64,000 nucleotides of DNA from an uncultured Candidatus Saccharibacteria bacterium (GCA_964355645.1 CAYHDI010000001.1:92897-156896), one strand, 5' to 3'. Numbered from the stretch's first letter, positions 18,657-54,596 are shown. Notes: a model not told the origin generated them from the sequence alone. Numbers and translations: made by a program.

Positions 18657-18661
18657 AATAT

Positions 18662-19324: not shown

Positions 19325-19370
19325 ATTTCTTTATTTGCTTCACATTATCATGTTGACACTCGGTGTCAAC
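18686..19370. mobile_element. REP-flanked RAYT unit (palindrome-Y1 transposase-palindrome)
   Basis: Identical 19-nt hairpins (8-bp stem GTTGACAC/GTGTCAAC, loop TCG) at 18686-18704 and 19352-19370 bracket the Y1 transposase gene. Confidence 0.6.
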
Positions 19371-19373
19371 GGA

Positions 19374-21317
19374 CTAGTCAAATGATATATCAAGTAATGG
19401 TTTGCTCTTCCACGAATCTTCTCCTTCAAAAGTTTCTTCCTCGGTTAGTTCTTCGGGGATATCAAAAATAAATTCTGAAGGAATGTTCACTTGTCTTGAG
19501 CCGAAGATAGTTCGCATCTGGGCATATGAAAGGAAAATTTTCTTCTTGGCCCGAGTGATGGCCACATAGAACAGCCTTCTCTCCTCCTCCGCCTCTTCGG
19601 GTGTGATATTTTCTCTAGTGATTTTTTGATGAGGAAATAGTCCATCCTCAAGTCCAGAAACAAAAATTGTGTTGAATTCTAGGCCTTTTGAGGCATGAAC
19701 GGTCATCAATCGAACAGAGTTTTGTTCTTCCTTGAGTTCATCTTGATCACTATTTAAAGCCGAATCAGAGAGGAGTTGCTCTACCCCCTCTTCCGGATTC
19801 AAATCATCGTAGTGCTTGGCAAAAGCCACAAGCTCGTAAGCATTTTCTAATCTATCGAGATCTTCGCCCTGGTTTTCTTTCCATTCTTTTTCTAATCCCG
19901 AAGCTTTCAAAATGAAAGTGATGATTTCGCTCGGGTGTTTCTCAATCGTGCAAGCTTTTATCTCTTCGAGCAGAGAATAAAAATCTTTTATTTTTTTCTG
20001 AGTGGTTCCGGTCAGGCCCGCTTCAGCTCCAGAAAATAATTTGGCTACCGAGGCCTTCCCTATTCCTCGTGCAGGAACATTGATAATCCGTTTGATATTA
20101 GACAATCCGCTTGGATTAAGCGAAGCCCGGAGATACGCAAGGATGTCTTTAATTTCTTTGCGTTCAAAAAATCTTGTGCCGATAAGTTGATACGGCAGGC
20201 GATGTTGCATGAAGGCCTCTTCGAGAACTCGGGATTGAAAATTGGCTCTGTAGAGGACAGCAATTTCTCTCGGCTCGGTTCCCTCGCCGATTAGTTTCTC
20301 AGCTTTCGAAGCGATGAATTCAGCCTCGGCTGATTCGTCGAAGCCTTGAAAGATTCCAATTTTTTCTCCAGAACCTTGAGAAGTGAACAAAGTCTTCTTT
20401 CTGCGAATTTTGTTTTTCTCTATGACTGCGTTCGCTGCCTCAAGAATAGTTTTGGTCGAACGATAATTTTCTTCAAGCAAAATAATTTTCGCCTCGGGAT
20501 AATCCTTTTCAAAATCCAAAATGTTTTTTATGTCTGCGCCTCTCCAAGAATAAATGTTTTGATCTATATCCCCTACCACACAGATGTTTCTCTTCGGCCC
20601 AACCAAGAGTTTACAAATCTCGTATTGCACCCCACTCGTGTCTTGATATTCATCCACATGAACATAGTCCCAAGTTTTTTGATAAAAATGTCTGACTTCA
20701 AGATCAGTGCGCAAGAGCCACGCCATTTTTAAAAGCAAATCGTCGAAGTCGAGAGCCCCGTCTCTTTTTAAAATCTTTTCGTATTCTTTCCAAACCATCT
20801 CAACCACATCCGAGAAGTATCCTCTTTCGCTTCGATTCTCATAATCCGTTTCGTTTAATCCCCGGCCTTTCTCTTTGGAAATAATCGAGAGTACTCGAGC
20901 AGGGTCATGAGTTTTCACATCCAAACTGCACTTTTCGAGAGCCTCTTTTACCGCCTTTTTGCTATCATCTCGATCGAAAATAGTGAAATGTCGTCTAAGT
21001 CCGAGTTTGGCCGACTGTTCCTTGATGATATGAACTCCGAGCGAATGAAAAGTTGAGACAAACGGCCGTTCATTCATTGAAACCGGTTTGTTTATGGTTC
21101 TGTCTTCAGAAAGCATCTTTTCTATCCTCTCCTTCATTTCTCGAGCCGCTTTGTTGGTGAAAGTAATAGCCAGAATCCTCGAAGGAGAGGTCCCATTTTT
21201 CACCAGGTGTTTAATTCTTTCGGCAATGGTCTTGGTTTTGCCCGCCCCAGCCCCGGCCAAAATCAAAAGCGGTCCTTCGGTAGTCGAAATTGCTTCTTTT
21301 TGCCTTTCGTTTAGCAT
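19374..21317 (-). CDS. pcrA: ATP-dependent DNA helicase PcrA/UvrD
   Basis: Walker A LILAGAGAGKTKTIAER and ITFTNKAAREMKERI, with UvrD-family motifs throughout the 647-aa product. Confidence 0.9.
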   Translation of the reverse strand: MLNERQKEAISTTEGPLLILAGAGAGKTKTIAERIKHLVKNGTSPSRILAITFTNKAAREMKERIEKMLSEDRTINKPVSMNERPFVSTFHSLGVHIIKEQSAKLGLRRHFTIFDRDDSKKAVKEALEKCSLDVKTHDPARVLSIISKEKGRGLNETDYENRSERGYFSDVVEMVWKEYEKILKRDGALDFDDLLLKMAWLLRTDLEVRHFYQKTWDYVHVDEYQDTSGVQYEICKLLVGPKRNICVVGDIDQNIYSWRGADIKNILDFEKDYPEAKIILLEENYRSTKTILEAANAVIEKNKIRRKKTLFTSQGSGEKIGIFQGFDESAEAEFIASKAEKLIGEGTEPREIAVLYRANFQSRVLEEAFMQHRLPYQLIGTRFFERKEIKDILAYLRASLNPSGLSNIKRIINVPARGIGKASVAKLFSGAEAGLTGTTQKKIKDFYSLLEEIKACTIEKHPSEIITFILKASGLEKEWKENQGEDLDRLENAYELVAFAKHYDDLNPEEGVEQLLSDSALNSDQDELKEEQNSVRLMTVHASKGLEFNTIFVSGLEDGLFPHQKITRENITPEEAEEERRLFYVAITRAKKKIFLSYAQMRTIFGSRQVNIPSEFIFDIPEELTEEETFEGEDSWKSKPLLDISFD

Positions 21318-23622: not shown

Positions 23623-25164
23623 TTACACATCAAATTTCTTGGGCCTATACTCGACGGCCTCGAGGATGTGGTCGCGGGTAATTTCCTTAGAATTATCCAA
23701 ATCAGCGATGGTGCGAGCGACTTTAATCATTCGGTGATAAACACGCGGAGAGAATCCTAATCTATCGGACGCAAGATTGAGTGCAGATTTAGCTTCTGGT
23801 TCAAGGGTGATGAAATTTATCAAATCACGCGCACTCATCTCAGAGTTTTTTAATAAATAGGTTTTGTTATTTTTGTTTGATTCAGAAAATCTGGCGCGTT
23901 GAATATTCCTTGCATCAATCACTTTGTTTTTAAAGAATTCACTCTTGGCCCCTTCCTCAATACCTGAAAGTTGTTCAGCATTAATTCTGTCTACTTCAAG
24001 CCAAATATCTATACGATCAATAATCGGTCCGCTCATTTTTCTTCTATATCTTTGGAGTGATGTGGGAGTACAAATACAAGGTTTACCCCGAAAACCATAA
24101 TTACCACATGGGCAAGGATTCATGGCGGCGATTAGTAATACATTTGCTGGGAAGTTTGCTGTACCCTTCGCCCGAGCAACAGATATAACCTTATCCTCTA
24201 GTGGTTGTCTTAAACTCTCTACAACTCGTCTTTCAAATTCCGGAAATTCATCCATGAAAAGTACTCCACGATGAGCAAGAGTTATTTCTCCAGGTTTAGG
24301 CGTCGCTCCTCCACCAACGAGTGAAACATAGGATGATGTGTGGTGAGGCGAACGAAACGGGGGCTCGGTAATAAAATTAGCCAATGTACCAGCCACAGAA
24401 TGGATACTGGTGGCTTCGAGCGCTTCATCAAACGAAAGAGAGGGCAAAATACCAGAGAAGGCTTTGGCCAACATTGATTTTCCTGTTCCCGGAGGGCCAT
24501 ACATGGCCACATTGTGTCCACCAGCAGCGGCGATGAGCAGTCCCCGTTTGGCCCTCTCCTGTCCTCGGATATCAGAGAAATCAACACTAGAAACTTTGGT
24601 TTCTTTTTTAAATTCAGTTGTATTATTTTTTGTTAAAAGCCTTTTTTTGGTTAAGTGCCCAATTAATGAATTTAACGAATCAACCCCGTAGACATCTATA
24701 CCACTGATGATGGCGGCTTCTTCTGCATTTTCTTTAGGCACATATAATTCTTTGATACCTTTTAATTTGGCAAACTGAGTGATGGGCAATACCCCGCGTA
24801 CTGGGCGAAGTGTCCCATCCAATGATAATTCTCCAAGGAAAACTTTTTTCTCCGGATCAAAATCAATTTCTTCTGCAGATAATAAATATGAAAGGGCCAT
24901 AGCCACATCAAATGATGGTCCCTCCTTTTTTTCTGAGGCCGGGGCGAGGGAGATTACAATTTTATGGTTCTGTGCCTTTGGAGAATCATAACCAGAATTT
25001 TTTATGGCCGAACTTAATCTATCTCTGGATTCTTCTACGGCCTTATCTGGTAGTCCAACAACAGCAAAGGCATAAAGTGTCCGGGGCGTGATGTCAGTCT
25101 CCACAGAGACAATCCCCGCTGATAATGCTGAAGTCTGAGCGCTGTAAACTTTTGAGAAGCTCAT
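23623..25164 (-). CDS. comM: Mg-chelatase-like AAA+ protein YifB/ComM
   Basis: N-terminal Lon-like domain, Walker A GPPGTGKSMLAKA, and the YifB C-terminal domain. Confidence 0.9.
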   Translation of the reverse strand: MSFSKVYSAQTSALSAGIVSVETDITPRTLYAFAVVGLPDKAVEESRDRLSSAIKNSGYDSPKAQNHKIVISLAPASEKKEGPSFDVAMALSYLLSAEEIDFDPEKKVFLGELSLDGTLRPVRGVLPITQFAKLKGIKELYVPKENAEEAAIISGIDVYGVDSLNSLIGHLTKKRLLTKNNTTEFKKETKVSSVDFSDIRGQERAKRGLLIAAAGGHNVAMYGPPGTGKSMLAKAFSGILPSLSFDEALEATSIHSVAGTLANFITEPPFRSPHHTSSYVSLVGGGATPKPGEITLAHRGVLFMDEFPEFERRVVESLRQPLEDKVISVARAKGTANFPANVLLIAAMNPCPCGNYGFRGKPCICTPTSLQRYRRKMSGPIIDRIDIWLEVDRINAEQLSGIEEGAKSEFFKNKVIDARNIQRARFSESNKNNKTYLLKNSEMSARDLINFITLEPEAKSALNLASDRLGFSPRVYHRMIKVARTIADLDNSKEITRDHILEAVEYRPKKFDV

Positions 25165-27956: not shown

Positions 27957-28934
27957 ATGTCGCACAATATGGGAACAACTACTGAACTTGAAAAGCTGAA
28001 ACGAGAATTTCTCGAATATACTGAGATAGAGAAGGGTCGCAGTTTGAATACCGTCCGAAACTACGAACATTACCTTGATAGATTCTTCGAATTTTCGAAA
28101 GCGAAGAAAGCGAGCGACATCACGGACGGTCTTCTTCGAGAATATCGTTTGTGGTTGAACAGGCAACCCACCTTCGCCAAGGCTTCGGTGGGCAAAGTCT
28201 CTAGAGCAGAGACTTTGAAAAAGAAAACCCAAAATTATTATTTGATTGCTCTTCGCGCGTTTCTGAAATACATTGCGAAGCGTGGAGTGAAGGTCCTCTC
28301 CCCCGAAGTGATTGAACTCGCGAAGGTTGGTGAGAGGCAAATTGATTTGATTACCTCTGAAGAATTGAATCGCTTGCTCGATGCGCCGGATACTGCCACT
28401 CTGCGCGGTTTGAGAGACAAAGCGATTCTTGAAACATTATTTTCGACCGGACTACGTGTTTCTGAACTCTGTTCCCTACCCCGCGAGATAAATCTCGAAA
28501 GTGATGAGTATTCGATTCGAGGCAAGGGTGAGAAAGTTCGCGTGGTCTTTCTTTCTGATGAAGCGAAACATTCAATCAAAAATTATTTGAATAAAAGAAA
28601 TGATTTGGACGATGCGCTCTTCGTAAAAATCGAAGAGCAAAGTCAAAAGTCAAAAGTCAAAAGTCAAAAGTTGAATGAAGTTGCACCGTTGACTCCCCGT
28701 TCAGTCCAAAGAGTTATTAAACATTATGCCATCAAGGCTGGGATATCAAAAAAAGTGACGCCTCACGTCGTGCGACACATGTTCGCGACCGACCTACTCT
28801 CAAACGGTGCAGATTTACGAAGTGTCCAAATGCTCCTCGGCCATGCAAATATCGCTACTACCCAAATTTATACCCACGTGACAGACGCAGCATTAAGGGC
28901 AACACATAAAAAATTCCATTCGAGGAGGAAATAA
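27957..28934 (+). CDS. xerD: tyrosine recombinase XerC/XerD family
   Basis: N-terminal core-binding domain (TVRNYEHYLDRFFEF) and catalytic R..H..R..Y region (HVVRHMFATDLLSNGADLRSVQMLLGHANIATTQIYTHV). Contains an internal (AGTCAAA)x4 tract. Confidence 0.85.
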   Translation: MSHNMGTTTELEKLKREFLEYTEIEKGRSLNTVRNYEHYLDRFFEFSKAKKASDITDGLLREYRLWLNRQPTFAKASVGKVSRAETLKKKTQNYYLIALRAFLKYIAKRGVKVLSPEVIELAKVGERQIDLITSEELNRLLDAPDTATLRGLRDKAILETLFSTGLRVSELCSLPREINLESDEYSIRGKGEKVRVVFLSDEAKHSIKNYLNKRNDLDDALFVKIEEQSQKSKVKSQKLNEVAPLTPRSVQRVIKHYAIKAGISKKVTPHVVRHMFATDLLSNGADLRSVQMLLGHANIATTQIYTHVTDAALRATHKKFHSRRK

Positions 28935-43099: not shown

Positions 43100-44300
43100 C
43101 CTGTGCACAGGAAAGATTGAATTAAGCAACATCATATCAGACACTCTTTAATCTTTTCCTTAGGTGTTAAGCCGTTAATTCCCAAATGTTCACGTTCATT
43201 GTTATACCAATCAATATAGACTTGTCTCTTTAAATCAAGATCCTCAAGGGTTTTGAATGATACTTGATTCCAGAATTCTTCTCTATCTGTCCGGTGGCTT
43301 CTTTCCACCTTGCCATTCTGAGATGGTTTGCCCGGTTGAATCAGATAATGAATGATTTTGTTTTTAAGACAAGTTTGATCAAACAAATGTTTCTTTCTTG
43401 CACCCAGGCTCTTGTATGCTCCAACATATCTATTAGTGAAGATGGAACCGTTATCTGTCTTAACCCCCAGGACTTTGAATGGGGCGTGTTTAATCACTTC
43501 ATCCAGAAATCTCGAAGCATTTAATGAATGTTGTTCCGAATAAAACTTCAAGAATCTCCATCTGGTGCAGCAATCTATAGCCGTGAACTGAAAGATCCAT
43601 TTATCTTTATATCTCTTCATTAAAGCCACATCTATCTCTATAAGTTCTCCAGGAACCAAACTCTTCGGTTTCCAGATATCAGTTCTAGGTATTCGTCTCT
43701 TGGTTCGTACTAACTTCTCACGTTTCAAGACTTTATGTATTCCTCTGGCACTCATCACAGTTCCTTCTTTCAAGAGTCTGAATCTAATTTTTTGAGCACA
43801 GAAATTGTGTTCACTTCTAATTTCTCGTATTCTTTGAACTATATGTATTGGAGTGGTATGAGGATGAGAGTGATGAGCTCTGGATTTCTCCTTGAGACCA
43901 GTTAATCCATTCTTGAGATAACTCCTCTTCCATCTATGCAAAGTATCTCGGCAGAACCCAGAACGTTGGCTTAACTCTGTGATTGATAAATTTCCTTCAA
44001 AATGAAGCTTGAGCCAACGTTCCCGTTCGCTGGCAATCAATATATCTGTTTTTCTTATCATCTTAACCATAGTTTTACACTGTCTGAGATGATGGTACAC
44101 AATACCATTTACACTTGCTTTATTTTCAATTAGTGGTAGTTTAACAATCAGAGCGGTTCCCTTATTCAGGAGTTCAGATGACCAAATCTCAAGAGAATTG
44201 TCATGATGAAGATATTGGCAAACTTGGTCAGAATCCATTTGCTGTAGCAGATGATCCGCCGGATTCTGATCAGATTCTCAAGCAACTCATGGTCGATTAC
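43100..44300. mobile_element. IS481-family insertion sequence (ends not resolved by eye)
   Basis: Single full-length transposase ORF. Terminal inverted repeats could not be defined confidently. Confidence 0.5.
43132..44238 (-). CDS. IS481-family DDE transposase
   Basis: N-terminal HTH (LSITELSQRSGFCRDTLHRWKRSY) and rve integrase core (KTDNGSIF...IQPGKPSQNGKVERSHRT...EREHLGINGLTP). Confidence 0.8.
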   Translation of the reverse strand: MDSDQVCQYLHHDNSLEIWSSELLNKGTALIVKLPLIENKASVNGIVYHHLRQCKTMVKMIRKTDILIASERERWLKLHFEGNLSITELSQRSGFCRDTLHRWKRSYLKNGLTGLKEKSRAHHSHPHTTPIHIVQRIREIRSEHNFCAQKIRFRLLKEGTVMSARGIHKVLKREKLVRTKRRIPRTDIWKPKSLVPGELIEIDVALMKRYKDKWIFQFTAIDCCTRWRFLKFYSEQHSLNASRFLDEVIKHAPFKVLGVKTDNGSIFTNRYVGAYKSLGARKKHLFDQTCLKNKIIHYLIQPGKPSQNGKVERSHRTDREEFWNQVSFKTLEDLDLKRQVYIDWYNNEREHLGINGLTPKEKIKECLI

Positions 44301-44312: not shown

Positions 44313-45602
44313 ATGAACCTCTTTTTTGTTAGTATGTCTGTATATATGAAATCTTTGACCAAATTTGGAGTAGAATTTCATCACGAAGTTTTAAGGAATG
44401 GGGTAAATCTTTTCTTGTTCAAAAGGAAGGGCATGCCTATTTATATAAGGGCCACTTTTTTTGCTGGTTCGCGTTTCGATTCAATCCACGGTACGGCACA
44501 TTTCTATGAACACATGCTCGTAGCTGGTACAAAAAAATTTCCCTCAAAAAATTTAATTGCAGACTATATTCAAAAAGTTGGAGGAGAATTTGGAGCGAGT
44601 ACCAGTAATACAATTTTGAAATTCAATGTAGAAATACCCGAGGCTAAGGATTTGGAGACAGGAATAGAAATTATGAGAGAGTGCCTGGTCAACTCGCTTT
44701 TTGATCCCAAGACTATCGAAACCGAAAGAGGCTCGATTATTTCTGAACTTAATGCGAAAAAAACAAACCCAAACGAATATGTTTTTGAAGTATTTTCTAG
44801 AATCGCCTTTCAAGACACGGCTCTTGAGAACAGTGTTCTGGGTACAGAAGCTGAGGTTAAGACAATTAAAAAAGACGATCTTTTAAATTTTGGATCCAAG
44901 TTTATACATTCAGGCAATCTCGCTTTTGTTGCCAGTGGAGATATCAATATTGATGAATTAAAAACAGCACTCGAAAGTATTCATATTCCAGAAGGAAAAA
45001 AATTTGAAGTAGAAAACCAGATACCAACAATAAAAACCCGAAATTCAGAGATTGAATTTTACTCTGGAGTTAAACAGCTACAAGTAATTTTTGGCTGCCG
45101 TACATCCATTGAAACATTTAAGGAATATTGTGCTTTAAGAGTTTTAAACAATGTTCTTGGGGGCGGGAGGGGTTCTCGGTTGATAACCAAACTTCGTTAT
45201 GAAAATGGTTTGGTATATTCAGTCTCAAGTAATATTCTTGAATCTGCTGATTGGGGAATGTTCAGAATAAGGTTATCTTGTGATAAGGATAATTTTAAAC
45301 TGGCGAAGCAGTTAATTTTAGATGAATTCGATAATTTAAAACAGAACAATATTACTACAGAAGAATTGGAGAACAACAAATCTAAAATCTCGAAAGGCTC
45401 AATTCGAGATTTGCAAACATCGATTTCTTGGGTTAATAATCACGAAACAGATTCTATTTTTAACCCAGAAGCTTTAAATACTATTGAAGACCATATTAAA
45501 ATGATAGAAAACCTGACGTTGGATGATATAAGTATGGTGATAAAAAAATATCTAAGAGAAGAAAACTTTTATACCGCTATTTGTGGAGATTATAAAAAGT
45601 AG
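44313..45602 (+). CDS. M16-family (pitrilysin/insulinase-like) zinc peptidase
   Basis: Inverted zinc motif HFYEH with a downstream Glu, and the two-domain M16 architecture. Confidence 0.7.
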   Translation: MNLFFVSMSVYMKSLTKFGVEFHHEVLRNGVNLFLFKRKGMPIYIRATFFAGSRFDSIHGTAHFYEHMLVAGTKKFPSKNLIADYIQKVGGEFGASTSNTILKFNVEIPEAKDLETGIEIMRECLVNSLFDPKTIETERGSIISELNAKKTNPNEYVFEVFSRIAFQDTALENSVLGTEAEVKTIKKDDLLNFGSKFIHSGNLAFVASGDINIDELKTALESIHIPEGKKFEVENQIPTIKTRNSEIEFYSGVKQLQVIFGCRTSIETFKEYCALRVLNNVLGGGRGSRLITKLRYENGLVYSVSSNILESADWGMFRIRLSCDKDNFKLAKQLILDEFDNLKQNNITTEELENNKSKISKGSIRDLQTSISWVNNHETDSIFNPEALNTIEDHIKMIENLTLDDISMVIKKYLREENFYTAICGDYKK

Positions 45603-46153: not shown

Positions 46154-46645
46154 TTAAATAATTTTTATTTCAGTAATAAACGATTTCGGTATCATATAAT
46201 ATTTTGGTTTTTTCTGTGGATGATTTTTAATTGGTAATGGATGTGTTTTAATGGTTTCCGGATTTTTTAATACTAAATAAGAATTTGTTGCCTTATATAA
46301 AATACCCTCGGAGTACATAATCGAACAATCCCTCTTGGGCATATTTGCAATATAAACAATATCTCGCCATACAACGGATATATTCGACCCGATTTTAATT
46401 TTCTGTAGCCCTTGAATTTCAAAGTTTTTGTTTAAAGAAGTCAGCGCATTTGCTGGAATTATTAATCCTTTAATTATTTGTTTGTTATCTTTGTTTTTAG
46501 ATATTTGTTTTATGAATTCAATGGTTATGTTTTTCTTGCTTTTTCTCATATACCCATATGCTTCATGAATAGACAGTTTTGTAGGTAAATTCTTATTATA
46601 AAAATAAGATGCGTCAATGTATTTTATGTTAGATATTTTTTCCAT
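46154..46645 (-). CDS. hypothetical protein (start trimmed to MEKISNIKY; the ORF-track N-terminal 78 aa are read-through of a GC-rich insert)
   Basis: Composition switches sharply at 46650. The AT-rich part forms a coherent 164-aa ORF. Confidence 0.4.
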   Translation of the reverse strand: MEKISNIKYIDASYFYNKNLPTKLSIHEAYGYMRKSKKNITIEFIKQISKNKDNKQIIKGLIIPANALTSLNKNFEIQGLQKIKIGSNISVVWRDIVYIANMPKRDCSIMYSEGILYKATNSYLVLKNPETIKTHPLPIKNHPQKKPKYYMIPKSFITEIKII

Positions 46646-46700
46646 ATACTTTAATAATAAACCCGGGGAGGATGATAATCTATCCTCCCCGGTTGTGCTG

Positions 46701-46901
46701 TTACTTCTTGGACCCGAAGACGGAATCCCAGAAGCTTGTAGCGCGACTTCCAGATTCGTCGTCGCGACTGAACGATTGGCTGTTCTTCTCTGAGTTCCCC
46801 CGTTCGAACACGCCTGCCTCGGTGGCATCATCTTGTGCCTGGTGCTCTGCCGCCACAGCTTTGCTCGAAGAATCGCCACTGTCGCTTGAGTATTTGTTCA
46901 C
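46701..46901 (-). CDS. 66-aa acidic Ser/Asp-rich protein in a GC-rich segment
   Basis: GTG start preceded by AAAAGGAGG at an 8-nt spacing, and a minus-strand TTGAAA-N17-TATAAT promoter at about 46985-47015. Confidence 0.45.
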   Translation of the reverse strand: MNKYSSDSGDSSSKAVAAEHQAQDDATEAGVFERGNSEKNSQSFSRDDESGSRATSFWDSVFGSKK

Positions 46902-47157
46902 AGTTCTCGCCTCCTTTTCGAGCGGTTAAAGACAAGGCTGGCTGTCATCCGACTACCAGCATTATTTACATTCTATATGCAATTATAAGACAATAATTGA
47001 CTTGTTTCAAGCTTGTATAAGTTGTTTTACCCATCCAGCATGCGGGCCCTTTTTGTTTGAGAATTTTATTTAATGGTTAAGTTTCGCGATTGGTTTAAGT
47101 TATATGATTACTGTACAAGTTGTTGAAATTAATGTCTATTTATATTAAAATCATTTT

Positions 47158-48855
47158 ATGGAAAACCCCGATACATACGATGATTTTTCAATTAACAGGA
47201 AGGAGAATCCTGAATTACAAAAAAAGATTGCGGAGGCCGTTTTTCTGTCTGAGGCCTTATTAACACCTGAAGAATTAGAGAGAAAATATCCCGAGAGGGA
47301 ATTACCTCCAGAAGCGATGATCACAAGAGTTGGACCCAGTCCAACAGGATTTATGCATATCGGGGGAATATATATGGCCCTTATTTCTGAAAGATTTGCC
47401 CACCAAACGGATGGTATTTATTATCTTAGAATAGAGGATACGGATAGAAAAAGAGAAGTAGATGGGGCACGAAAAGTCATCGTTGATTCACTTCACAATT
47501 TTGGACTTGACCCGGATGAGGGAGAAAAGTTTGATGGTTTAGAGCATGGAAACTATGGACCGTATTGTCAATCAGAGCGAAGGGAAGTATATGGGAGTTA
47601 TATTAAGTCACTTCTTACAAGAGGTGACGCATACTTGTGTTTTTGTAGTGAGGAGGAGCTGGAAGCTATGCAAAAAATGCAGGAAACCTTAGGTGTAAGG
47701 AGAGGATATTGTGGGCCGTGGGCTAAATGGCGGGATGCATCTCAAGAAAAAGTTTTAGATGAATTATCAAGAGGAACTCCATATGTTGTCAGGTTTAGGT
47801 CCCAAGGAGACCCTAATAAAATCTTTACCCACCATGATTTACTGAAAGGCGATGTTATTTTATCAGAAAATGATTTGGATGCTGTGATAATGAAATCAGA
47901 TGGTTTGCCCACATATCATCTTGCTCATGCTGTTGATGATCATCTCATGAGAACAAGCCATGTTTTAAGAGGTGACGAGTGGTTGCCTTCCGTTCCCCTT
48001 CACTACGAATTGTTTAAGACCCTAGGATTCGATCTCCCAGAATATGCTCATATATCTCCGATAAATAAATTGGATAATGGGAATAAAAGGAAACTTTCGA
48101 AGAGAAAGGATCCAGAGGCCAATGTTTCTTTCTATCAACAGAAAGGTTATCCTCCCGAGGCTGTTTTGGAATACCTTTTAAATCTTGCTAATTCTGATTT
48201 TGAAGATTGGAGAAAAGAAAATCCAAACACGAGTTATAAAGAGTTTGAACTCAAAATGAGCAGGTTGGCCAATAGTAACGGGCCATTGTTTGATGAGAGT
48301 AAATTAAGGGATACAGCAAAAGAAATTATCTCAAAAATGTCTGCGGATCAAATATTCGAAAATGTTTTAAATTGGGCAGAAATTAATGATTATCAATTTT
48401 TTACTTTATTAAATAATGACAAGGAATATTGGACCAGTATTTTTGGTATTGAAAGAGGGGGTAGTAATTCAAGAAAAGATATTTCAGCATGGTCTGATGT
48501 GCGTGGATTTTACGAATTCTTTGATAAAGGAAAATATCAACTGCCAAATTGGGGGAATTTCGTCTCAATTTTTAACACCAAAGAAATAAAAGAGATTTTT
48601 AGTGAATACCTTGCCATTTATGATGAGAACGATTCCAAGGTGGAATGGTTAGAGAAAATTAGACAATTATGTATCAAATATAATTTGGCGCCAAATTTAA
48701 AAACATACAAAGCAGACAAAACTAATTTTAGAGGCCATATAGGAGATCTTACTCAGTGTATACGCTTTGCAATTACTGGAAGAACTCAATCGCCTGATAT
48801 TTTTGAGATAATAAAAATATTAGGCAAAAGTGAGGTTTTTCGAAGACTTGCATAA
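47158..48855 (+). CDS. gltX: glutamyl-tRNA synthetase
   Basis: Class I HIGH motif (PSPTGFMHIGGIYMAL), KMSKS-like KLSKRK, and an anticodon-binding C-domain over 565 aa. Confidence 0.85.
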   Translation: MENPDTYDDFSINRKENPELQKKIAEAVFLSEALLTPEELERKYPERELPPEAMITRVGPSPTGFMHIGGIYMALISERFAHQTDGIYYLRIEDTDRKREVDGARKVIVDSLHNFGLDPDEGEKFDGLEHGNYGPYCQSERREVYGSYIKSLLTRGDAYLCFCSEEELEAMQKMQETLGVRRGYCGPWAKWRDASQEKVLDELSRGTPYVVRFRSQGDPNKIFTHHDLLKGDVILSENDLDAVIMKSDGLPTYHLAHAVDDHLMRTSHVLRGDEWLPSVPLHYELFKTLGFDLPEYAHISPINKLDNGNKRKLSKRKDPEANVSFYQQKGYPPEAVLEYLLNLANSDFEDWRKENPNTSYKEFELKMSRLANSNGPLFDESKLRDTAKEIISKMSADQIFENVLNWAEINDYQFFTLLNNDKEYWTSIFGIERGGSNSRKDISAWSDVRGFYEFFDKGKYQLPNWGNFVSIFNTKEIKEIFSEYLAIYDENDSKVEWLEKIRQLCIKYNLAPNLKTYKADKTNFRGHIGDLTQCIRFAITGRTQSPDIFEIIKILGKSEVFRRLA

Positions 48856-48867
48856 ACGACAAACAGA

Positions 48868-49818
48868 ATGGACAGCTTGTTTTTTAAGAAAAAAGAGGTT
48901 GCCGAATCTTTAAAAAGACTTTCTAAAAACATTATTTCATATTATGTTGATTATAAACTAATGTCTAAGAATGCCATTCATGAACTCAACACAAAGACAA
49001 AGAATAGGCAATTTCAAAATAATATTATTGGCGCGTTCACACTGAGCACTTGTTTGCGGCAAGAAATTTATTCATTTGGTTCCAAAAAAAGTGTTGATGA
49101 TGAAAATTATTACGCATGTTTGAGTGGAAAATTAGCACTAAGAAGATTAATTACTATTGCCTGCGGTCTTCACTCAGAAATTATTGGTGAGAAAGAAATA
49201 TTTTTACAATTAGGTAATTCAATACTTTTTGCTTACGATCAGTCATTAATATCAAAGATGTTATGTAGCGATTTATTGAATATCTTATATATTGCGGATG
49301 AATTAAAGAAGAAATTTAGTATACAAACAGATGAGAACTACTCAACTGTCGGTGTTTCAATTATGGCAGGTTTTGCAAATTCTAATTCAACGTTATGTAT
49401 TATTGGTTCTGGATATATGGCTCATGTTTTTATTAAGAATTTCAAATCAATAGAGTATAAGAAAATAATATGGATTAGTCGGGACATAGACAGGCTTAAA
49501 AAAATAGTCGGTATTACAGGTGTTGACAAAGATAAAGTAGTTTACGTAGAAACAAAAGATGCAATTAAATATATACAAGAAGCGGATCTAATTTTTGCAG
49601 CTACAAATAATACTGATACCCCATATCGCCGTATGCTTTTCCCCAAAGCAAAAGCTATTATTGATGTTTCCTACCCGTCGCTTTTTTCTGAAGGTTGTAA
49701 CTCAAATTTTATTTCTATTCAAAACACATTTTTTGAAAAATTGATTAGTAAGCCGGTAGACAAAATATCAATACTCAAGGTTGAAAAGGCGATTGATAAG
49801 TTACTAAAAATTATATGA
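48868..49818 (+). CDS. glutamyl-tRNA reductase (HemA)-like protein, C-terminally truncated
   Basis: Block-wise alignment to E. coli HemA: FTLSTCLRQEIY vs VLSTCNRTELY (catalytic Cys retained); IACGLHSEIIGEKEIFLQ vs VASGLDSLVLGEPQILGQ; CIIGSGYMAHVF...IIWISRDIDRLK vs LLVGAGETIELV...MIIANRTRERAQ; EADLIFAATNN vs EADIIISSTAS; AIIDVSYPS vs LLVDIAVPRD. Lacks the ~100-aa dimerisation domain. Confidence 0.6.
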   Translation: MDSLFFKKKEVAESLKRLSKNIISYYVDYKLMSKNAIHELNTKTKNRQFQNNIIGAFTLSTCLRQEIYSFGSKKSVDDENYYACLSGKLALRRLITIACGLHSEIIGEKEIFLQLGNSILFAYDQSLISKMLCSDLLNILYIADELKKKFSIQTDENYSTVGVSIMAGFANSNSTLCIIGSGYMAHVFIKNFKSIEYKKIIWISRDIDRLKKIVGITGVDKDKVVYVETKDAIKYIQEADLIFAATNNTDTPYRRMLFPKAKAIIDVSYPSLFSEGCNSNFISIQNTFFEKLISKPVDKISILKVEKAIDKLLKII

Positions 49819-50477
49819 AAAAAGTGACCGATGCAAAGATTGTTGACCTTGTTGTAGATATGGTTCCCAAGACCAAGATAATTTTTATCACTGCCCAATA
49901 CGGGAAGTCAACAAGTGATGTTGATATCTATTGTGTTGCTGACGTTAGAAAATCATATGTTCACATTTTTTTAAAAAATGATCGTTTGTATGAAATTTTT
50001 ATTGATAGCATCAAAAATCTTAAGAAAAAAGCAAAAAATAAAGATGAGATAACTTTTTCATTTTTGCATAGAATGAGGTTGGTTTATGGTGACAAAACCG
50101 TTCATAATAATTTCAAGAATTTATTCCCAACAAGATATTCTATGCCCGAATACAGACTCCAGAAGTTAATATATCGAATTAAAGTTATTAGTTCGAAATA
50201 TACTTCCTCAAAAAATGATTTGTTGAGGAATTTTTTCCTAGGACAGCTTATTCAATATTTTATAATGTTGGAGTTTCATCTGAATGGTATATGGCCAGCA
50301 AGTCCTAAGAAATGGCTGGAACAACTTAGTCAAATGAATACGGCAACCTCTAAACAGTTAATAAGTTTGATTGCAAATAAAAACACAAATGTTGGCTCCC
50401 TTATATTAGAATACACCAAGAATTTTAAGGGGCTAGATTTGGAATATTTTACAACCAATCAAACATTAATTGTGTAA
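49815..50477 (+). CDS. putative nucleotidyltransferase-fold protein
   Basis: GKSTSDVDIYCVAD resembles the pol-beta NTase G-S...D-x-D signature. Start overlaps the hemA-like stop (ATGA). Confidence 0.4.
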   Translation: MKKVTDAKIVDLVVDMVPKTKIIFITAQYGKSTSDVDIYCVADVRKSYVHIFLKNDRLYEIFIDSIKNLKKKAKNKDEITFSFLHRMRLVYGDKTVHNNFKNLFPTRYSMPEYRLQKLIYRIKVISSKYTSSKNDLLRNFFLGQLIQYFIMLEFHLNGIWPASPKKWLEQLSQMNTATSKQLISLIANKNTNVGSLILEYTKNFKGLDLEYFTTNQTLIV

Positions 50478-50506
50478 TTATCGGTTCTTTCCCTGTTTTA
50501 GATCTT

Positions 50507-50590
50507 GTGGATACCCACAACTTTTTTAAAGAGAATACTATATAATAGAGAATAGTAATTCTTTAATTTTCTTAAACTAATGAAAAAAGA
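50507..50590 (+). repeat. copy 1 of 70-bp direct repeat + ATGAAAAAA (duplicated promoter/5' end of the surface protein gene)
   Basis: TGTGGATACCCACAACTTTTTTAAAGAGAATACTATATAATAGAGAATAGTAATTCTTTAATTTTCTTAA is identical at 50507-50576 and 52256-52325. Both copies continue into ATGAAAAAA. Confidence 0.85.
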
Positions 50591-50665: not shown

Positions 50666-52033
50666 TTACTGGCAAACGGTTTTTTCGAGAGCAAGTTTGA
50701 GCATGAACTCGCGCTGACCCTGATGTGCTTCCATGATCGAGCACCGAAGACCACCGTACTTCCTCTCGAGATCCCTCGTCTTGTACAGCATGAGAATGTA
50801 CAGGACGTCGTACTTGCTGGGATATCCGGGCACGAACCCGGTGCGATCATCAATGGTGAATCCCTCGCACTTCTGACCCTGAAGGCTTTGGAATCCGCAC
50901 CCGTGACCAACTCCAACGAAATGGAGCAGTTCATGGCGGAAACTTCCCGGATTCTTGCGCCAATCGTCGAGAGACATGGATACGACTAGACCTGCCCCAA
51001 GCTCTCCATTCCCTAGATAACTTACTCCACCTTGAGCTGGGATAGGAGCAATCTTTGAGGAGATGTATACATTCACGCCGTCTGTCGTCGTGACCTCGCT
51101 CTGATTTCCAGCACGAAGGTATTGACTACCGAAGTACTGGTTCAGAACGTCTGCAGCTGACCATGCCAGTGCCGAATCGGTCGGAGCGAATTGAGCATCG
51201 CCCAAATCGTTTCGGAGCGCATACGGCTGTGGGAGGGTCTTGTGAGTGGCGTTGTTGTAATACCACACACCATTCACAAGTTGACGAGGGTAGAACGATG
51301 AACCATCACTCCCCGCAATGTACGCCAAGCTGATGTCGAACGGTAGCCTTACGCCGGCATACACGCCCGAAGGAATGGTCATGCCGAGAGGCTCAACAAC
51401 GAGTACAAGAGTCTTCGTCATGTCCGCCTTCCGGATGGTTCCGTCGCACTTCCTCGCCGTGTACAACCGACTCGTCCCAGGCATCGCGTCAACAATGCAC
51501 GAAACAGAATCGGTATTCGCAAGCGCGGTCGGAAGAGTGAAACTTCCGTCCGATGACGTCACATCAACACTTGCAGTGTCGGCACCCTTGAAAAGAGTGA
51601 CACGTACACTCTTCGGTGTAGCCCAATCATTTGCCAGGTCGACAATCATTACTCGACCATTCACAACTGACTGTGGTACAGGAACGGGCTTGCAGTCACT
51701 CTTGGTATCTCCGCTCTTTACCGAATGTACCGTAGCACAAACAGTATAGAGTCCGGGCATCGCGGGTACTGTGCCACACGTAGCTGGGTTGCCATTCACC
51801 GTGCAGTCAGTCGTAACGCTTCCAACGTTTGAGGAAGCTTGGACTGAAATCACGATCAGAGGCATCGGGTATGCCTGCGTCACAGACGCCGACACATTCA
51901 CCGAAAGCGTTTCTTGCACCGGCGGGGGCGGAGGATTTCCATTCCCCGTCGGAGAACTGCCACACGCTGTGGCAATGAAAGAGATCACGGCCGCGCAAAC
52001 GGCCGTGGCGAAACCACGGATGATGCGCGACAT
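50666..52033 (-). CDS. secreted lipoprotein zinc metalloprotease (metzincin-like HExxHxxGxxH), GC-rich foreign gene
   Basis: Lipoprotein signal MSRIIRGFATAVCAAVISFIATAC|GSS and the motif HELLHFVGVGHG. GC is about 55-60% against ~33% in the flanks. It has its own promoter (TTGACA x2 ... TATGGT) and SD (CAGGAGG) at about 52040-52200. Confidence 0.6.
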   Translation of the reverse strand: MSRIIRGFATAVCAAVISFIATACGSSPTGNGNPPPPPVQETLSVNVSASVTQAYPMPLIVISVQASSNVGSVTTDCTVNGNPATCGTVPAMPGLYTVCATVHSVKSGDTKSDCKPVPVPQSVVNGRVMIVDLANDWATPKSVRVTLFKGADTASVDVTSSDGSFTLPTALANTDSVSCIVDAMPGTSRLYTARKCDGTIRKADMTKTLVLVVEPLGMTIPSGVYAGVRLPFDISLAYIAGSDGSSFYPRQLVNGVWYYNNATHKTLPQPYALRNDLGDAQFAPTDSALAWSAADVLNQYFGSQYLRAGNQSEVTTTDGVNVYISSKIAPIPAQGGVSYLGNGELGAGLVVSMSLDDWRKNPGSFRHELLHFVGVGHGCGFQSLQGQKCEGFTIDDRTGFVPGYPSKYDVLYILMLYKTRDLERKYGGLRCSIMEAHQGQREFMLKLALEKTVCQ

Positions 52034-52255: not shown

Positions 52256-52337
52256 TTGTGGATACCCACAACTTTTTTAAAGAGAATACTATATAATAGA
52301 GAATAGTAATTCTTTAATTTTCTTAACAATGAAAAAA
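52256..52337 (+). repeat. copy 2 of the 70-bp direct repeat (native promoter of the surface protein gene)
   Basis: Identical to 50507-50576. Carries the palindromic TTGTGG-ATAC-CCACAA element and TATAAT-like boxes. Confidence 0.85.
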
Positions 52338-54596
52338 CAAATTTTATTTAAAAGCTTTATTCTCTTGTTTGTTGCAAGCATTACTCTTTTCAGTTCTCAA
52401 AAAGTTGAAGCGTATCAGATGGAATTTTTTGCCAGTGATGGGATGGGGGGTAATACATCGATAACATCGAACACCCTTGACGCTGTGGCTCCAACCTTAA
52501 CAACAACTTCCTCTTCTATCACATTGTATGTTGAGGGAGGGCCATTAGACGGGACACCATACCTTCTAAAATCATCGAGTCCAGCAACAGCATATAGTGG
52601 TACAACTGCTTTTCCTATAGATTCAGGATTTGACAACCAATATATCACTGGTCTTACGCCCGGTGATTACACGTTTCGTGCACGTCTATCAAACACCCAA
52701 GATGGCGGGACAACATATCTTTATGCAGAAATTCCTGTTCGTGTCGTAGCCACATCCGCCACAGTGAATGTTTCTCTAAACTCATGCCCAACTGGTACTA
52801 CGTACGGTTCGAGTACAGGGAACAATGGGACACAGCCGGGAGGAACCTTCACCTTTACTCCAGCATCAAATGGAACTCAAGTTACCATAAGTGTAACAAC
52901 TCCGGTTGATTATGTATTTGATTGGACGACGCCGAGTTCACAAATAGCTTATCAAGGAGGTTCCTATAATTTTACAGGGCTATGTAGACAACAAACACCG
53001 CCTGTAACTGCTGACATAAAAGCCAATGGTTCTGACGACCCAATTACTATTACTTCTGGACAATCAGCCTCGCTTACTTGGTCATCAACAAATGTAAGAT
53101 CTTGTTCGAGTGCGGATTTTTCAACTGGGAATGTCACTTCTAATTCAACAGGAGTATCTGTATCACCCACAGCAACGAAGACTTACAACCTAACTTGTAC
53201 ATCTAATGATGGGCGAACTGGAATAGATAGCGTAACCGTGAATGTTGTCTCCGCTCCAGCTCCAACGGTCACAGTTACCGCTAGCCCAGCTTCAATAAGT
53301 TCTGGGGGTTCTTCTACAGTCTCGTGGTCTTCAACGAATGCCACCTCTTGTGCTTCTAATTGGTGGAGTGGTTCCTCATCTACTTCCGGCTCGGTAACTG
53401 TTTCACCTTCTGTGACAACGAATTATACGAAAACCTGTTCAAACGCTTCCGGAAGCAACACTGGTTCTGCCACGGTTTCTGTCACTCCTGGTGCTTCGGC
53501 TAACCTGACAGCAAATCCAACTACCATGACGAAGGGTAACGGTACCATTCTGAACTGGACGAGTACCAATACGAGCTCGTGTAGTGGAGTCGGCTTCAAT
53601 ACTAGCGGAGCCACTTCGAATACAGTGTCTTGGTACTATTGGATTGCCCCAACTCAAACCACTACTTATACCTTGAATTGTATTTCAAGTGTCGGCGGCC
53701 CAAATCCATCATCAAGTGCGACAGTGACGGTGACTGCTCCGACTGTAGCTACGATCATACTTTATGCTGGTTTGGCTCAAGGTGGGGGAACTGTTAATCC
53801 TGGAAATTTTAGCAATACTGGTCAAACCCCGACTCCTATATATGTGACCCCGAATCCTACGAACGGTACGACTTACACTGTGACTCCTTATAATGTTTCA
53901 GGATACACAGCGTCTGTTGAAGATGGTCAGACAGGAGTACCTGGAGCTTCGGCCTTGCTGTTCCCCGGGGATTCCAAGTATTTCTCAGTGATTTACACTT
54001 CATCCTTCAATTATTCTCTCTCGAATTCTGGAGCAACCACAGTGCCGAAGGGTGGTTCAGGACAAAATACCATCACTGAAACACTCGTGAGTGGAACTTC
54101 TCAACCAGTCACCCTCGCTGTTTCTGGTGTTCCGGCCGGAGTTTCTGCCACACTTTCTACATGTTCTCCTGTGAATCCAACATGTACTTCGGTCATCACG
54201 TTTACAGTTCCTGCGAATACTCCAGCTGGGGATTACAACGTCACCGTGACCGGCAGTCCTTTGTCCAAAACAACGAATCTTACTCTTCGTGTAGTGAACA
54301 ATCCTGCTATTACTTCTACTTGCGTGGCCTCACCTTCCTCGGCCCTTGTTGGCCAAACGGTGACTTGGACAGCGAATGCTTCAGGTGGAACCCCGCCCTA
54401 TACCTATAGTTGGTCTGGTTCAGGAATTCCTACAGATCCCGCACCAAGTTCAGCCTCATTTGGTATCACTTACTCAACTATTGGACAGAAAACTGCTCAA
54501 GTCGTAGTGACCGACTCACTCTCGTCTACTGGTTCGTGCCCAGCCCCCGGTGGTACAGTTCAAATCAACTTCAACCCACAGTTCAAGGAGTTTTAA
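52329..54596 (+). CDS. large secreted surface protein with tandem Ig-like repeats and C-terminal PKD domain
   Basis: Signal peptide, then three ~85-aa repeats with the conserved pattern sWsSTN..SC...........TY.L.C (53040-53760), and a PKD-like ...GGTPPYTYSWSGSG near the C-terminus. Confidence 0.65.
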   Translation: MKKQILFKSFILLFVASITLFSSQKVEAYQMEFFASDGMGGNTSITSNTLDAVAPTLTTTSSSITLYVEGGPLDGTPYLLKSSSPATAYSGTTAFPIDSGFDNQYITGLTPGDYTFRARLSNTQDGGTTYLYAEIPVRVVATSATVNVSLNSCPTGTTYGSSTGNNGTQPGGTFTFTPASNGTQVTISVTTPVDYVFDWTTPSSQIAYQGGSYNFTGLCRQQTPPVTADIKANGSDDPITITSGQSASLTWSSTNVRSCSSADFSTGNVTSNSTGVSVSPTATKTYNLTCTSNDGRTGIDSVTVNVVSAPAPTVTVTASPASISSGGSSTVSWSSTNATSCASNWWSGSSSTSGSVTVSPSVTTNYTKTCSNASGSNTGSATVSVTPGASANLTANPTTMTKGNGTILNWTSTNTSSCSGVGFNTSGATSNTVSWYYWIAPTQTTTYTLNCISSVGGPNPSSSATVTVTAPTVATIILYAGLAQGGGTVNPGNFSNTGQTPTPIYVTPNPTNGTTYTVTPYNVSGYTASVEDGQTGVPGASALLFPGDSKYFSVIYTSSFNYSLSNSGATTVPKGGSGQNTITETLVSGTSQPVTLAVSGVPAGVSATLSTCSPVNPTCTSVITFTVPANTPAGDYNVTVTGSPLSKTTNLTLRVVNNPAITSTCVASPSSALVGQTVTWTANASGGTPPYTYSWSGSGIPTDPAPSSASFGITYSTIGQKTAQVVVTDSLSSTGSCPAPGGTVQINFNPQFKEF

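Follow-up and report, generated by a model that had tools for sequence, protein, structure and literature searches.

We found that three adjacent genes in the window (the whole 64-kb stretch of DNA that was analysed), which encode a glutamyl-tRNA synthetase (GluRS), a truncated enzyme related to glutamyl-tRNA reductase (GluTR) and a nucleotidyltransferase-like protein that we designated ORF3, are best read as a single module, mobile and co-evolving, that serves tRNA-dependent specialised metabolism and not haem; we put this reading at a probability of roughly 55%, and its chemistry is inferred. Since relatives of the trio, some of them fused, lie inside antibiotic-like gene clusters, the module most likely converts a charged tRNA into an unknown small-molecule building block rather than into haem. 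No enzymatic step has been demonstrated and no product identified. The preliminary description of this DNA had suggested a Glu-tRNA-dependent pathway other than classical C5 haem synthesis, an idea supported by gene adjacency, congruent trees, fusions, the absence of hem genes and the biosynthetic neighbours seen in related loci. The features of the region are:

47123..47151, + strand: promoter-like site TTGAAA-17 nt-TAAAAT (consensus match only, 10/12)
47158..48855, + strand: gltX, long-type GluRS of 565 residues (ORF call, Pfam/NCBIfam models, motifs)
48868..49818, + strand: truncated GluTR-like enzyme of 316 residues (Pfam/NCBIfam models, PDB matches, residue comparison)
49815..50477, + strand: ORF3, 220-residue pol-beta-fold nucleotidyltransferase with a HEPN-like helical C-terminal domain (predicted structure and fold search)
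50505..50520, + strand: terminator-like hairpin followed by a T-run (pattern match only)

All three reading frames lay on the + strand at the positions first reported for them, and their tight packing was as described: 12 nt separate the TAA stop of gltX (48853-48855) from the ATG at 48868, and the stop of the GluTR-like gene overlaps the ORF3 start as ATGA at 49815-49818, an overlap by which ORF3 is predicted to be translationally coupled to the reductase. The promoter-like site ends 7 nt before the gltX ATG, so that a transcript started from this putative promoter would have no leader or a very short one; the regional count of such sites was not significantly above that in shuffles. The hairpin, 28 nt from the ORF3 stop, is the probable end of a three-gene operon, although it too is only a pattern match and such hairpins were no more numerous than in shuffles. 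The trio had also been said to occupy an AT-rich stretch between a transposable element with an M16 peptidase and a GC-rich cassette, and this setting was confirmed. The GluTR-like gene (30.2% GC) and ORF3 (30.6% GC) form the window minimum (1-kb windows, mean 0.409, sd 0.038), with gltX at 36.9% GC; a DDE (rve) transposase (43132-44238) and the M16 peptidase (44313-45602) lie on one flank and a 54%-GC ORF (50666-52033) on the other. The trio, near the rve transposase and at the most AT-rich spot, was probably acquired horizontally.

The gltX product, claimed to be a full GluRS, passed TIGR00464 marginally (294 bits, cutoff 289.95) and also passed PF00749 (224.5 bits) and PF19269 (39.9 bits) in Pfam, and its PDB sequence matches were GluRS in every case. 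Its HIGH-type PSPTGFMHIGG and KLSKRK motifs are intact, an anticodon-binding domain is present, and the protein carries an N-terminal extension of ~50 residues. It shares 43-63% identity with the cassette GluRS of other phyla and falls in a long-GluRS clade that is distinct from standard GluRS in our tree, which did not resolve monophyly of the cassette GluRS. Because long-type enzymes also appear to serve as the ordinary GluRS in some Clostridia, gltX here may simply be a housekeeping gene; no second GluRS was found within the 64-kb window. Extra-copy status of the cassette GluRS is clear elsewhere, namely on a Bacillus plasmid, in locus L024 and in locus L032, where two intact GluRS genes are adjacent. 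We infer that the gltX product supplies and presents Glu-tRNA to the GluTR-like enzyme.

For the 316-residue protein, homology to the catalytic and NADPH-binding domains of GluTR with loss of the dimerisation domain had been proposed, and each part was upheld. PF05201 (GlutR_N) matched at 46.5 bits (gathering score 27) and the Rossmann-domain model PF01488 at 36.4 bits (gathering score 24.3). Set against the C-termini of 64 canonical GluTRs, the protein stops short by a median of 92 residues, the GluTR dimerisation-domain model did not match, and a Pfam scan found nothing past residue 256. All unfused members of the family are 298-340 residues long. The best NCBIfam match was hemA TIGR01035 at 54.7 bits, below the equivalog cutoff of 209.55, and the remaining hemA models gave 24-46 bits against cutoffs of 289-469. 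A better score for shikimate dehydrogenase would have undone the GluTR assignment; those models scored far lower (E about 1e-3), so that this refutation fails, and PDB sequence matches were to the GluTRs 4n7r and 1gpj only.

We compared 31 cassette GluTR-like proteins with 64 canonical GluTRs residue by residue. The catalytic Cys, noted previously as retained, lies in an STCLRQE motif and is invariant across the family; C62, R64 and R93 align to residues 48, 50 and 84 of 1gpj. Residues conserved in at least 85% of canonical GluTRs were invariant or nearly so in the cassette proteins, both in the catalytic domain (T61, C62, R64, E66, Y68, G100, S103, G107, E108, Q114) and in the NADPH domain (G180 and G182 of G180-x-G182, R205, D240, D266, P270). 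In the A..HL motif, 86% of canonical enzymes carry a His (M. kandleri residue 84), where 31/31 cassette proteins have an invariant Arg (R93); this leaves room for a chemistry other than simple reduction. The cassette proteins also have motifs of their own (ENYS, DVSYP, NT.F), and, judged from these alignments, all their catalytic residues are under clear purifying selection.

A GluTR homologue with a retained active site could mean that the genes serve, or once served, C5 haem synthesis, making glutamate-1-semialdehyde for 5-aminolevulinate (ALA), whether still in working order or as what is left of an acquired hem operon in decay. In the canonical C5 pathway GluRS supplies the substrate of GluTR and the two cooperate on the same tRNA; that pair (1GPJ and 4N7R for HemA) belongs to the same two enzyme families as the module, and the first chemistry we infer (Glu-tRNA to Cys thioester to NADPH reduction) is the same. 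However, the cassette enzyme departs from canonical HemA in its missing dimerisation domain, its Arg in place of His and its family-specific motifs, and it reaches only about a quarter of the bits that the hemA equivalog model requires; the module departs from the C5 pair in its obligatory nucleotidyltransferase partner, GluRS fusions and mobile-element association. The reported lack of hem genes held for those ORFs of the window that were annotated or scanned (nearly all of at least 150 residues, those at about 32-38 kb only partly covered); hemL, hemB and hemC were found neither there nor in any of about 15 related loci, and no GSA aminomutase or other hem gene lies near the module. Bacillus has a chromosomal hemAXCDBL operon, and its module is an extra, plasmid-borne copy in a haem-competent host. 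The possibility that the trio is a relic of acquired ALA synthesis, also raised at the outset, found no support: purifying selection, invariant motifs peculiar to a discrete clade, the conserved partner, with which canonical GluTR can dispense, and strong conservation across phyla all speak against decay. The C5 reading, already largely refuted, seems to us very improbable.

ORF3 from the window matched no Pfam or NCBIfam model, so that its fold was not detectable in this way; the pol-beta nucleotidyltransferase fold suggested for it was nonetheless borne out by structure prediction and fold search. The predicted structure has a pol-beta core and a HEPN-like helical domain as in ANT(4')/KNTase, and the best full-length fold match was ANT(4'), aligned in both domains over 202 residues. 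Top fold neighbours were small-molecule O-nucleotidyltransferases, the antibiotic-resistance enzymes being closest; further neighbours act on proteins (MntA, GlnE), lipids (Tam41) or nucleic acids (HalB), so that a small molecule as acceptor cannot be taken for granted. Among 45 family members D35, E60 and D64 are invariant and D37 is at least 90% conserved, in keeping with the metal-binding carboxylates of ANT(4')-type enzymes, a D-x-[DE] on strand 2 and one further acidic residue; SDIDIYCV aligns to S49-D50-I-E52-MMCV of ANT(4'), whose metal ligands are D50 and E52. Also invariant are D77-E78, Y120-R121, K128 and P161-x-S163-P164-x-x-W167. PF01909 matched 1/6 family members (E 0.12) and hhalign of ORF3 against ANT(4') gave E 0.11, neither significant, and sequence and profile searches found no significant similarity to any characterised nucleotidyltransferase, including ANT(4') kanamycin nucleotidyltransferase, ANT(4')-IIb, LinB, ANT(6) and ANT(3'')(9). 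Relative to the ANT(4') group, ORF3 has a shorter loop before the DxD strand without the classical G-S, distinct C-domain motifs (YRIKV..SKY, P.SPK.W) and a genomic tie to GluRS and the GluTR-like gene instead of to resistance islands. This context argues for an acceptor other than an aminoglycoside hydroxyl, with the activity itself inferred.

Searching 1.84 billion proteins, we recovered 31 representatives of the GluTR-like clade at E <= 1e-30, beyond which scores fall to ~100 bits, where canonical GluTRs of 400-470 residues start; judged by sequence, this is a discrete and rare clade. The expectation that the trio would co-occur in related genomes was met, as GluRS, GluTR-like and ORF3 genes were adjacent in 15/15 independent loci with enough flank to be counted (the window, L005, L007, L010, L012, L013, L014, L015, L018, L020, L021, L024, L032, L033 and the P0012 contig; L017, with GluTR-like and ORF3 genes and a cut GluRS, was left out). 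Linkage persisted despite changes in gene order that left the GluRS gene convergent or ~5 genes apart. Full GluRS::GluTR-like fusions occur in P0020, P0027, P0034, P0039 and the 875-residue Bacillus proteins, and in further fusions (P0023, P0028 and an 805-residue protein of L024) the GluRS catalytic motifs are lost and the C-terminal tRNA-binding half is kept; an intact cassette-type GluRS is encoded 2 kb from the L024 fusion. The gene trees of all three proteins are congruent, with the same supported groups, and a copy from an alphaproteobacterium, with 62% GC and native in composition, falls within a CPR group at 84-100% bootstrap. The module is accessory and mobile: in B. thuringiensis (MYBT18246) it lies on a plasmid (p109822) between IS6 copies, the sole such match among 72,556 plasmids, and in L007 it is flanked by IS200-type genes.

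Several of these loci resemble biosynthetic clusters, with a transaldolase-like enzyme (a neighbour of 'SHMT' type scored 292 bits on fluorothreonine transaldolase versus 204 bits on SHMT) and a PLP enzyme, both assignments being below curated cutoffs. Further tailoring neighbours elsewhere include HAD, GTP cyclohydrolase II, phosphodiesterase, radical SAM and cupin-like proteins; the B. cereus locus (L020) has two BacD/DdaF-like ATP-grasp ligases, and both Bacillus loci (L020 and L021 of B. thuringiensis) have an MFS exporter gene. A cluster-encoded synthetase and an aminoacyl-tRNA-consuming enzyme accompanied by tailoring or export genes are found in L020, L021, L012/L015, L024 and L032 but not in the window, whose 64 kb hold the core trio without any such genes. 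The closest relatives (L005, L007, L013) likewise have the trio alone in the available sequence, and CPR genomes therefore give no evident sign of an exported small molecule; that the window itself comes from a CPR bacterium is inferred from the contig name and from relatives.

The same neighbourhoods might instead mark a resistance or defence cassette, in which the ANT-like enzyme nucleotidylylates an antibiotic, the GluRS is a drug-insensitive copy and the MFS protein provides efflux, or in which Glu-tRNA is manipulated against phage. The resistance enzymes closest to ORF3 in fold and its neighbour HalB, a Hailong defence component, fit this, as do the IS6-flanked plasmid module adjoining an MFS efflux gene and the presence close by of GmrSD in L018 and CRISPR Cas2 in L033; extra synthetase copies in gene clusters are a self-resistance strategy (mupirocin, albomycin, indolmycin). 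Yet PADLOC defence models matched none of the three proteins, a fusion or a group-A neighbour, the neighbours are mostly biosynthetic enzymes, and a resistance cassette leaves no role for an NADPH-dependent Glu-tRNA reductase, although it is this gene that is fused to GluRS and translationally coupled to ORF3. We consider it distinctly unlikely.

The fusions and the minimal CPR loci bear on tRNA housekeeping or quality control, in which gltX would encode the cell's normal GluRS, the GluTR-like protein would deacylate, hydrolyse as an esterase or sense Glu-tRNA (removing, for example, its excess or mischarged forms) and ORF3 would be an enzyme acting on the tRNA 3' end or other RNA. Canonical GluTR (M. 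kandleri, E. coli) has esterase activity without NADPH, and retention of the GluRS tRNA-binding half in decayed fusions, CPR loci that often hold the trio alone and the clostridial long-type GluRS are all compatible with such a role. An esterase would not need the NADPH-binding residues, however, and these are invariant; moreover, an accessory, mobile module in a tiny minority of genomes, small-molecule enzymes around it in Bacillus, L012/L015, L024 and L032, the exporter in the Bacillus loci, the two GluRS genes of L032 and the small-molecule O-nucleotidyltransferases nearest to ORF3 make this explanation unlikely. A further variant keeps the reductive module and makes ORF3 its regulator, AMPylating GluRS or the reductase as an on/off switch, much as MntA AMPylates HepT and GlnE AMPylates glutamine synthetase. 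The two-domain match to ANT(4') counts against this, a strict 1:1 linkage in every lineage, minimal CPR operons included, would not be expected of such a regulator, and we regard the variant as unlikely.

In the specialised-metabolism reading that we prefer, the long-type GluRS, assigned by family membership with its activity inferred, would charge tRNA(Glu), and the glutamyl group would pass to Cys62 of the GluTR-like enzyme as a thioester, as the retained active site suggests, for NADPH reduction to glutamate-1-semialdehyde and possibly on to the amino alcohol. Having lost the C-terminal domain used for dimerisation and partner docking, the GluTR-like enzyme would depend on GluRS for its tRNA, and GluRS, especially its C-terminal tRNA-binding half, would hold and hand over the tRNA; their constant adjacency, and their fusion in several genomes, would follow from such dependence. 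The ANT(4')-like enzyme, its gene always in translational coupling with that of the reductase, its fold predicted and its substrate inferred, would then use an NTP to attach an NMP to the reduced product or to something derived directly from it, so that an amino aldehyde or alcohol that is labile by itself is trapped in a stable, nucleotidylated form; taken on its own, we offer this step only as a tentative possibility. Tailoring genes specific to each lineage, seen in other genomes and absent from the window, would extend the product: a threonine-transaldolase-like enzyme needs an aldehyde acceptor, and in Bacillus further genes would export the product.

A more speculative form of this route, which we think unlikely as stated, leads to an aminoacyl-adenylate mimic. 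Four-electron reduction of Glu-tRNA would give glutamol (4-amino-5-hydroxypentanoate) and O-adenylylation by the ANT(4')-like enzyme glutamol-AMP, to our knowledge so far only a synthetic GluRS inhibitor, with the long-type GluRS as both supplier and insensitive target copy; the B. cereus ATP-grasp ligases and MFS pump would yield an exported Trojan-horse peptide-nucleotide, and in CPR episymbionts the compound could act on host translation. 

Among known systems, some parallels to the module hold by analogy only. The two ligases and exporter of B. cereus recall bacilysin BacD and dapdiamide DdaF from the field of Trojan-horse antibiotics; unlike microcin C, the module has no MccB-type adenylating enzyme. 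NRPS terminal reductase (R) domains likewise release an activated carboxyl reductively, as an amino aldehyde or alcohol, the carrier here being a tRNA instead of a phosphopantetheinyl arm. Literature searches found no tRNA-dependent natural-product pathway with reductive release by a GluTR homologue or with a pol-beta nucleotidyltransferase, and we know of no system that has either. In the known systems (valanimycin VlmL/VlmA, LanB glutamylation by Glu-tRNA, PEARLs, cyclodipeptide synthases) the aminoacyl group goes to a nucleophile, in contrast to the proposed reductive release, but the diversion of an aminoacyl-tRNA is shared, and in the B. cereus, B. thuringiensis, L024 and L032 loci so is a dedicated synthetase within the cluster.

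The three ORFs of the trio lie at exactly the coordinates assigned to them in the preliminary description, which had also recorded the short spacer between gltX and the next start, and the overlap joining the GluTR-like stop codon to the start of ORF3. The trio and its immediate surroundings comprise the following features.

47123-47151, plus strand: promoter-like site before gltX (pattern match only)
47158-48855, plus strand: gltX, ORF with stop codon TAA
48868-49818, plus strand: GluTR-like ORF of 316 aa, beginning 12 nt after gltX
49815 (start), plus strand: ORF3, 220 aa, whose ATG overlaps the TGA of the GluTR-like ORF as ATGA (49815-49818)
50505-50520, plus strand: terminator-like hairpin after ORF3 (pattern match only)
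50666-52033, minus strand: 455-aa ORF 3' of the cassette, 54% GC versus a window mean of 41%, with no Pfam or family match
52329-54596, plus strand: next gene, encoding a 755-aa Ser/Thr-rich, repetitive, secreted-looking protein

The AT-richness previously remarked for the trio was borne out, as the GluTR-like gene and ORF3 are the window minimum at 30% GC and gltX has 36.9% (1-kb windows: mean 40.9%, sd 3.8). Genes for an M16 peptidase and a transposase of the rve type lie upstream of gltX. The product of the 455-aa ORF has a lipoprotein-like N-terminus (…ATACGSS), and together with the adjoining repetitive protein this region looks like a foreign surface-protein insertion directly 3' of the cassette. 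The gene before gltX (46154-46930, both strands) was called at 131, 163, 224, and 225 aa across near-identical contigs from other samples and is locally GC-rich in its 5' part; it may represent a variable or degenerating region.

Searches with the 316-aa protein placed it in the GluTR family, as had been proposed, and not with the shikimate dehydrogenases, whose models scored far weaker. It exceeded the Pfam thresholds for both the catalytic and the NADPH domain of GluTR, matched only GluTRs among PDB sequences, and had hemA as its best NCBIfam match, where it reached a quarter of the cutoff score. When 1.84 billion representatives were searched exhaustively by profile, no more than 31 proteins reached E <= 1e-30, below which scores fell to those of canonical GluTRs (i.e., the ordinary haem-pathway enzymes). 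When 31 family members were compared with 64 canonical GluTRs, all canonically invariant residues of both domains were found to be kept. Members of the GluTR-like family stop a median of 92 residues short of the canonical set, indicating that they are without the dimerisation domain, an absence already suspected for the window protein. Alignment to the M. kandleri GluTR structure 1gpj put C62, R64, and R93 on residues 48, 50, and 84, of which residue 48 is the catalytic Cys of M. kandleri GluTR. R93 is an invariant Arg in the GluTR-like family at a position where canonical GluTRs have a conserved His, and this change could alter the chemistry.

To our knowledge, glutamyl-tRNA reductase has so far been treated as dedicated to tetrapyrrole synthesis. 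The preliminary description had envisaged either a GluRS-coupled pathway other than haem synthesis or a relic of acquired ALA synthesis, and had seen no haem genes in the window; our searches, which covered nearly all window ORFs of 150 aa or more, agreed, and none was present in any related locus either. A 'Mg chelatase' match at 23623-25164 (minus strand) was rejected as a tetrapyrrole enzyme, being a ComM/YifB-type AAA+ protein (PF13541, PF01078, PF13335). Called hemA and gltX, genes of the trio could pass for haem capacity in genomes that have none. The possibility that the trio is a defence system was likewise dismissed, as no component matched a PADLOC model.

The window GluRS narrowly passed the gltX equivalog model (294 bits, cutoff 289.95). 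Its HIGH-type and KLSKRK motifs are intact, it carries an anticodon-binding domain, and in the PDB it matched only GluRS. Its length of 565 aa makes it a 'long' GluRS, and we found no second GluRS in the window. That cassette GluRS might form a clade apart from all other GluRS could not be upheld; this was unresolved, and they fall in a wider long-GluRS lineage to which genes without a cassette, from Clostridia, B. pseudomycoides, and Streptomyces, also belong. The cassette-free long-type GluRS of Clostridia is apparently the normal GluRS gene there.

Wherever a locus includes sufficient flanking sequence, the genes for GluRS, the GluTR-like protein, and ORF3 are neighbours, ORF3 always being directly 3' of the GluTR-like gene and the GluRS gene varying in position (upstream, convergent downstream, or ~5 genes off). 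Several proteins are fusions of GluRS to the GluTR-like part. These are of two types, one with an intact GluRS and one in which the GluRS catalytic motifs have decayed and the C-terminal tRNA-binding half is kept; one locus (L024) combines a decayed fusion with a separate, intact GluRS of the cassette type at a distance of 2 kb. Trees built by neighbour joining for each of the three genes recovered the same supported groups, and in 3/3 gene trees a copy on a 62%-GC alphaproteobacterial contig, where it is compositionally native, nests in a CPR group, from which we conclude that the module co-evolves and has moved between phyla. The nearest relatives of the cassette are labelled Patescibacteria, Parcubacteria, or Paceibacterota, and the window's contig stems from groundwater (0.1-µm fraction, Hain_H52_01um), from which a CPR source is inferred as likely. 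No dedicated tRNA gene was found to travel with the cassette consistently across loci. A cassette copy also occurs on a very short 35%-GC scaffold in an isolate assembly (Paenibacillus sp. 22594 scaffold27, L017, 3.2 kb), where the first ORF runs from a GluRS C-terminus straight into the GluTR-like part; this could be a further fusion, or the scaffold a contaminant.

Mobile elements accompany the module at several loci. On B. thuringiensis plasmid p109822 there are IS6 copies on both sides, the B. cereus copy has an integrase and an IS605 element near it, and the window has the rve transposase. In locus L007, two IS200/IS605 Y1-transposase genes encoding 138 aa (1831-2247 and 7329-7745) bracket an amidohydrolase gene and the trio, an arrangement suggestive of a composite mobile unit. 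An Amidohydro_2 gene is seen again in L024.

A single-sequence, word-indexed search with ORF3 returned only near-identical copies, so the family was gathered from the neighbours of GluTR-like genes and then by profile search, giving 45 members at 90% clustering. Neither phmmer and profile searches of the PDB nor Pfam scans of every member found anything significant from which to assign a fold by sequence. A first structure, predicted from two sequences, had pLDDT below 50 in its N-terminal half, and hhalign comparison of the family with an authenticated ANT(4') sequence yielded no more than a motif match over 14 columns (E 0.11).

Outside the trio, a common block is inserted or appended in four lineages (L012/L015, L024, L032, and the B. 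cereus locus L020), and consists of a phosphodiesterase-family protein, an 'SHMT', a class I/II PLP enzyme, a HAD hydrolase, and GTP cyclohydrolase II. The 'SHMT' scored 292 bits as a fluorothreonine transaldolase versus 204 bits as SHMT, both below cutoffs. Fluorothreonine-type transaldolases add a glycyl unit to an aldehyde, and the product of a GluTR-type enzyme is an aldehyde. Further genes differ by locus: the B. cereus locus adds two BacD/DdaF-like ATP-grasp ligases and an MFS efflux protein; the B. thuringiensis plasmid (L021) an MFS protein, an aldehyde dehydrogenase, and an SDR; locus L014 and contig P0012 a radical SAM enzyme; and L010, L013, L018, and L033 a weakly cupin-like unknown protein, which in L018 and L033 is the same ~375-aa protein upstream of the cassette. 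These last two loci, from organisms of 62% and 44% GC, respectively, also share a GluQRS-like truncated GluRS paralogue 3' of the cassette (L018 13430-14302, L033 12287-13150; 287-290 aa, 65% identical between loci) with a HIGH motif and without KMSKS. None of the accessory genes of other cassette loci was found in the window. Specialised metabolism shows just such a pattern, in which the core stays constant and the tailoring genes vary. In L032 (genome GC 34%) the extended cassette adjoins two intact long-type GluRS genes of 570 and 555 aa, arranged tail to tail (8936-12381) and 56% identical.

The family membership of the proteins, the retained active site, the linkage, fusions, and co-evolution of the genes, and the fold of ORF3 are established, and the scheme proposed for the trio is inferred. 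GluRS would charge tRNA(Glu), and the truncated reductase would form a thioester at Cys62, followed by NADPH reduction, no activity having been demonstrated for either enzyme. Without its C-terminal domain the reductase may rely on the tRNA-binding half of GluRS, a dependence which would explain both the fusions and the retention of that half in the decayed ones. More speculatively, and in our estimate doubtful, the ANT(4')-like enzyme might nucleotidylylate the reduced product or an immediate derivative; no substrate or activity has been demonstrated. That the product is glutamol-AMP, a natural mimic of the GluRS adenylate, is a long shot that is not excluded, no product having been demonstrated.

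All parts of the trio are members of known superfamilies, and public annotation gives the Bacillus fusion as 'glutamate--tRNA ligase' or 'gltX' and ORF3 as 'hypothetical protein'. A full-text literature search turned up no account of GluTR paralogues acting outside tetrapyrrole synthesis, of fusions between GluRS and GluTR, or of such a gene trio. The trio would be a neofunctionalised GluTR branch within tRNA-dependent metabolism, giving the family a second branch of reduced length, linked to its own GluRS either physically or genetically and invariably accompanied by a nucleotidyltransferase. If the inference holds, reductive release joins the short list of routes diverting aminoacyl-tRNA into secondary metabolism, and the trio would point to an unidentified glutamate-derived, possibly nucleotidylated, metabolite in bacteria as unlike as CPR ultrasmall bacteria and Bacillus. 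The module is directly testable, being present on a plasmid of the cultured strain B. thuringiensis MYBT18246, where the fusion is WP_065486939.1 and ORF3 is WP_157686198.1. The B. cereus isolate assembly GCA_053454635.1 contains a fuller cluster.

Long-type GluRS genes were also seen in other settings. On B. pseudomycoides plasmid NZ_CP007624.1 (L025, 5275-15581) a long-type gltX without a GluTR-like gene neighbours an ATP-grasp protein, a SAM methyltransferase, an MFS transporter, an S66 (MccF/LD-carboxypeptidase-type) peptidase, and a PLP aminotransferase; together these could represent a distinct small-molecule cluster that depends on GluRS or targets it. On S. viridifaciens pKVP1 (CP090840.1, L027, 1-8539) such a gene lies directly 3' of genes for an NRPS, a large SDR-domain protein, and an asparagine-synthase-like protein, a further aaRS copy within an apparent biosynthetic cluster. 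Elsewhere in the window, the origin region (dnaA, dnaN, yidC; ~1200-19400, L022) abuts a type-IV-secretion/conjugation-like block with PrgI, a TraC-like protein, a TraG-type P-loop ATPase, a T4SS pilin, a 23S rRNA-intervening-sequence protein, and several large unannotated proteins. Around 27957-28934 (L023), a tyrosine integrase beside a Fic-domain protein and a MazE-type antitoxin, with an NYN-domain protein nearby, is another small mobile or toxin-antitoxin island.
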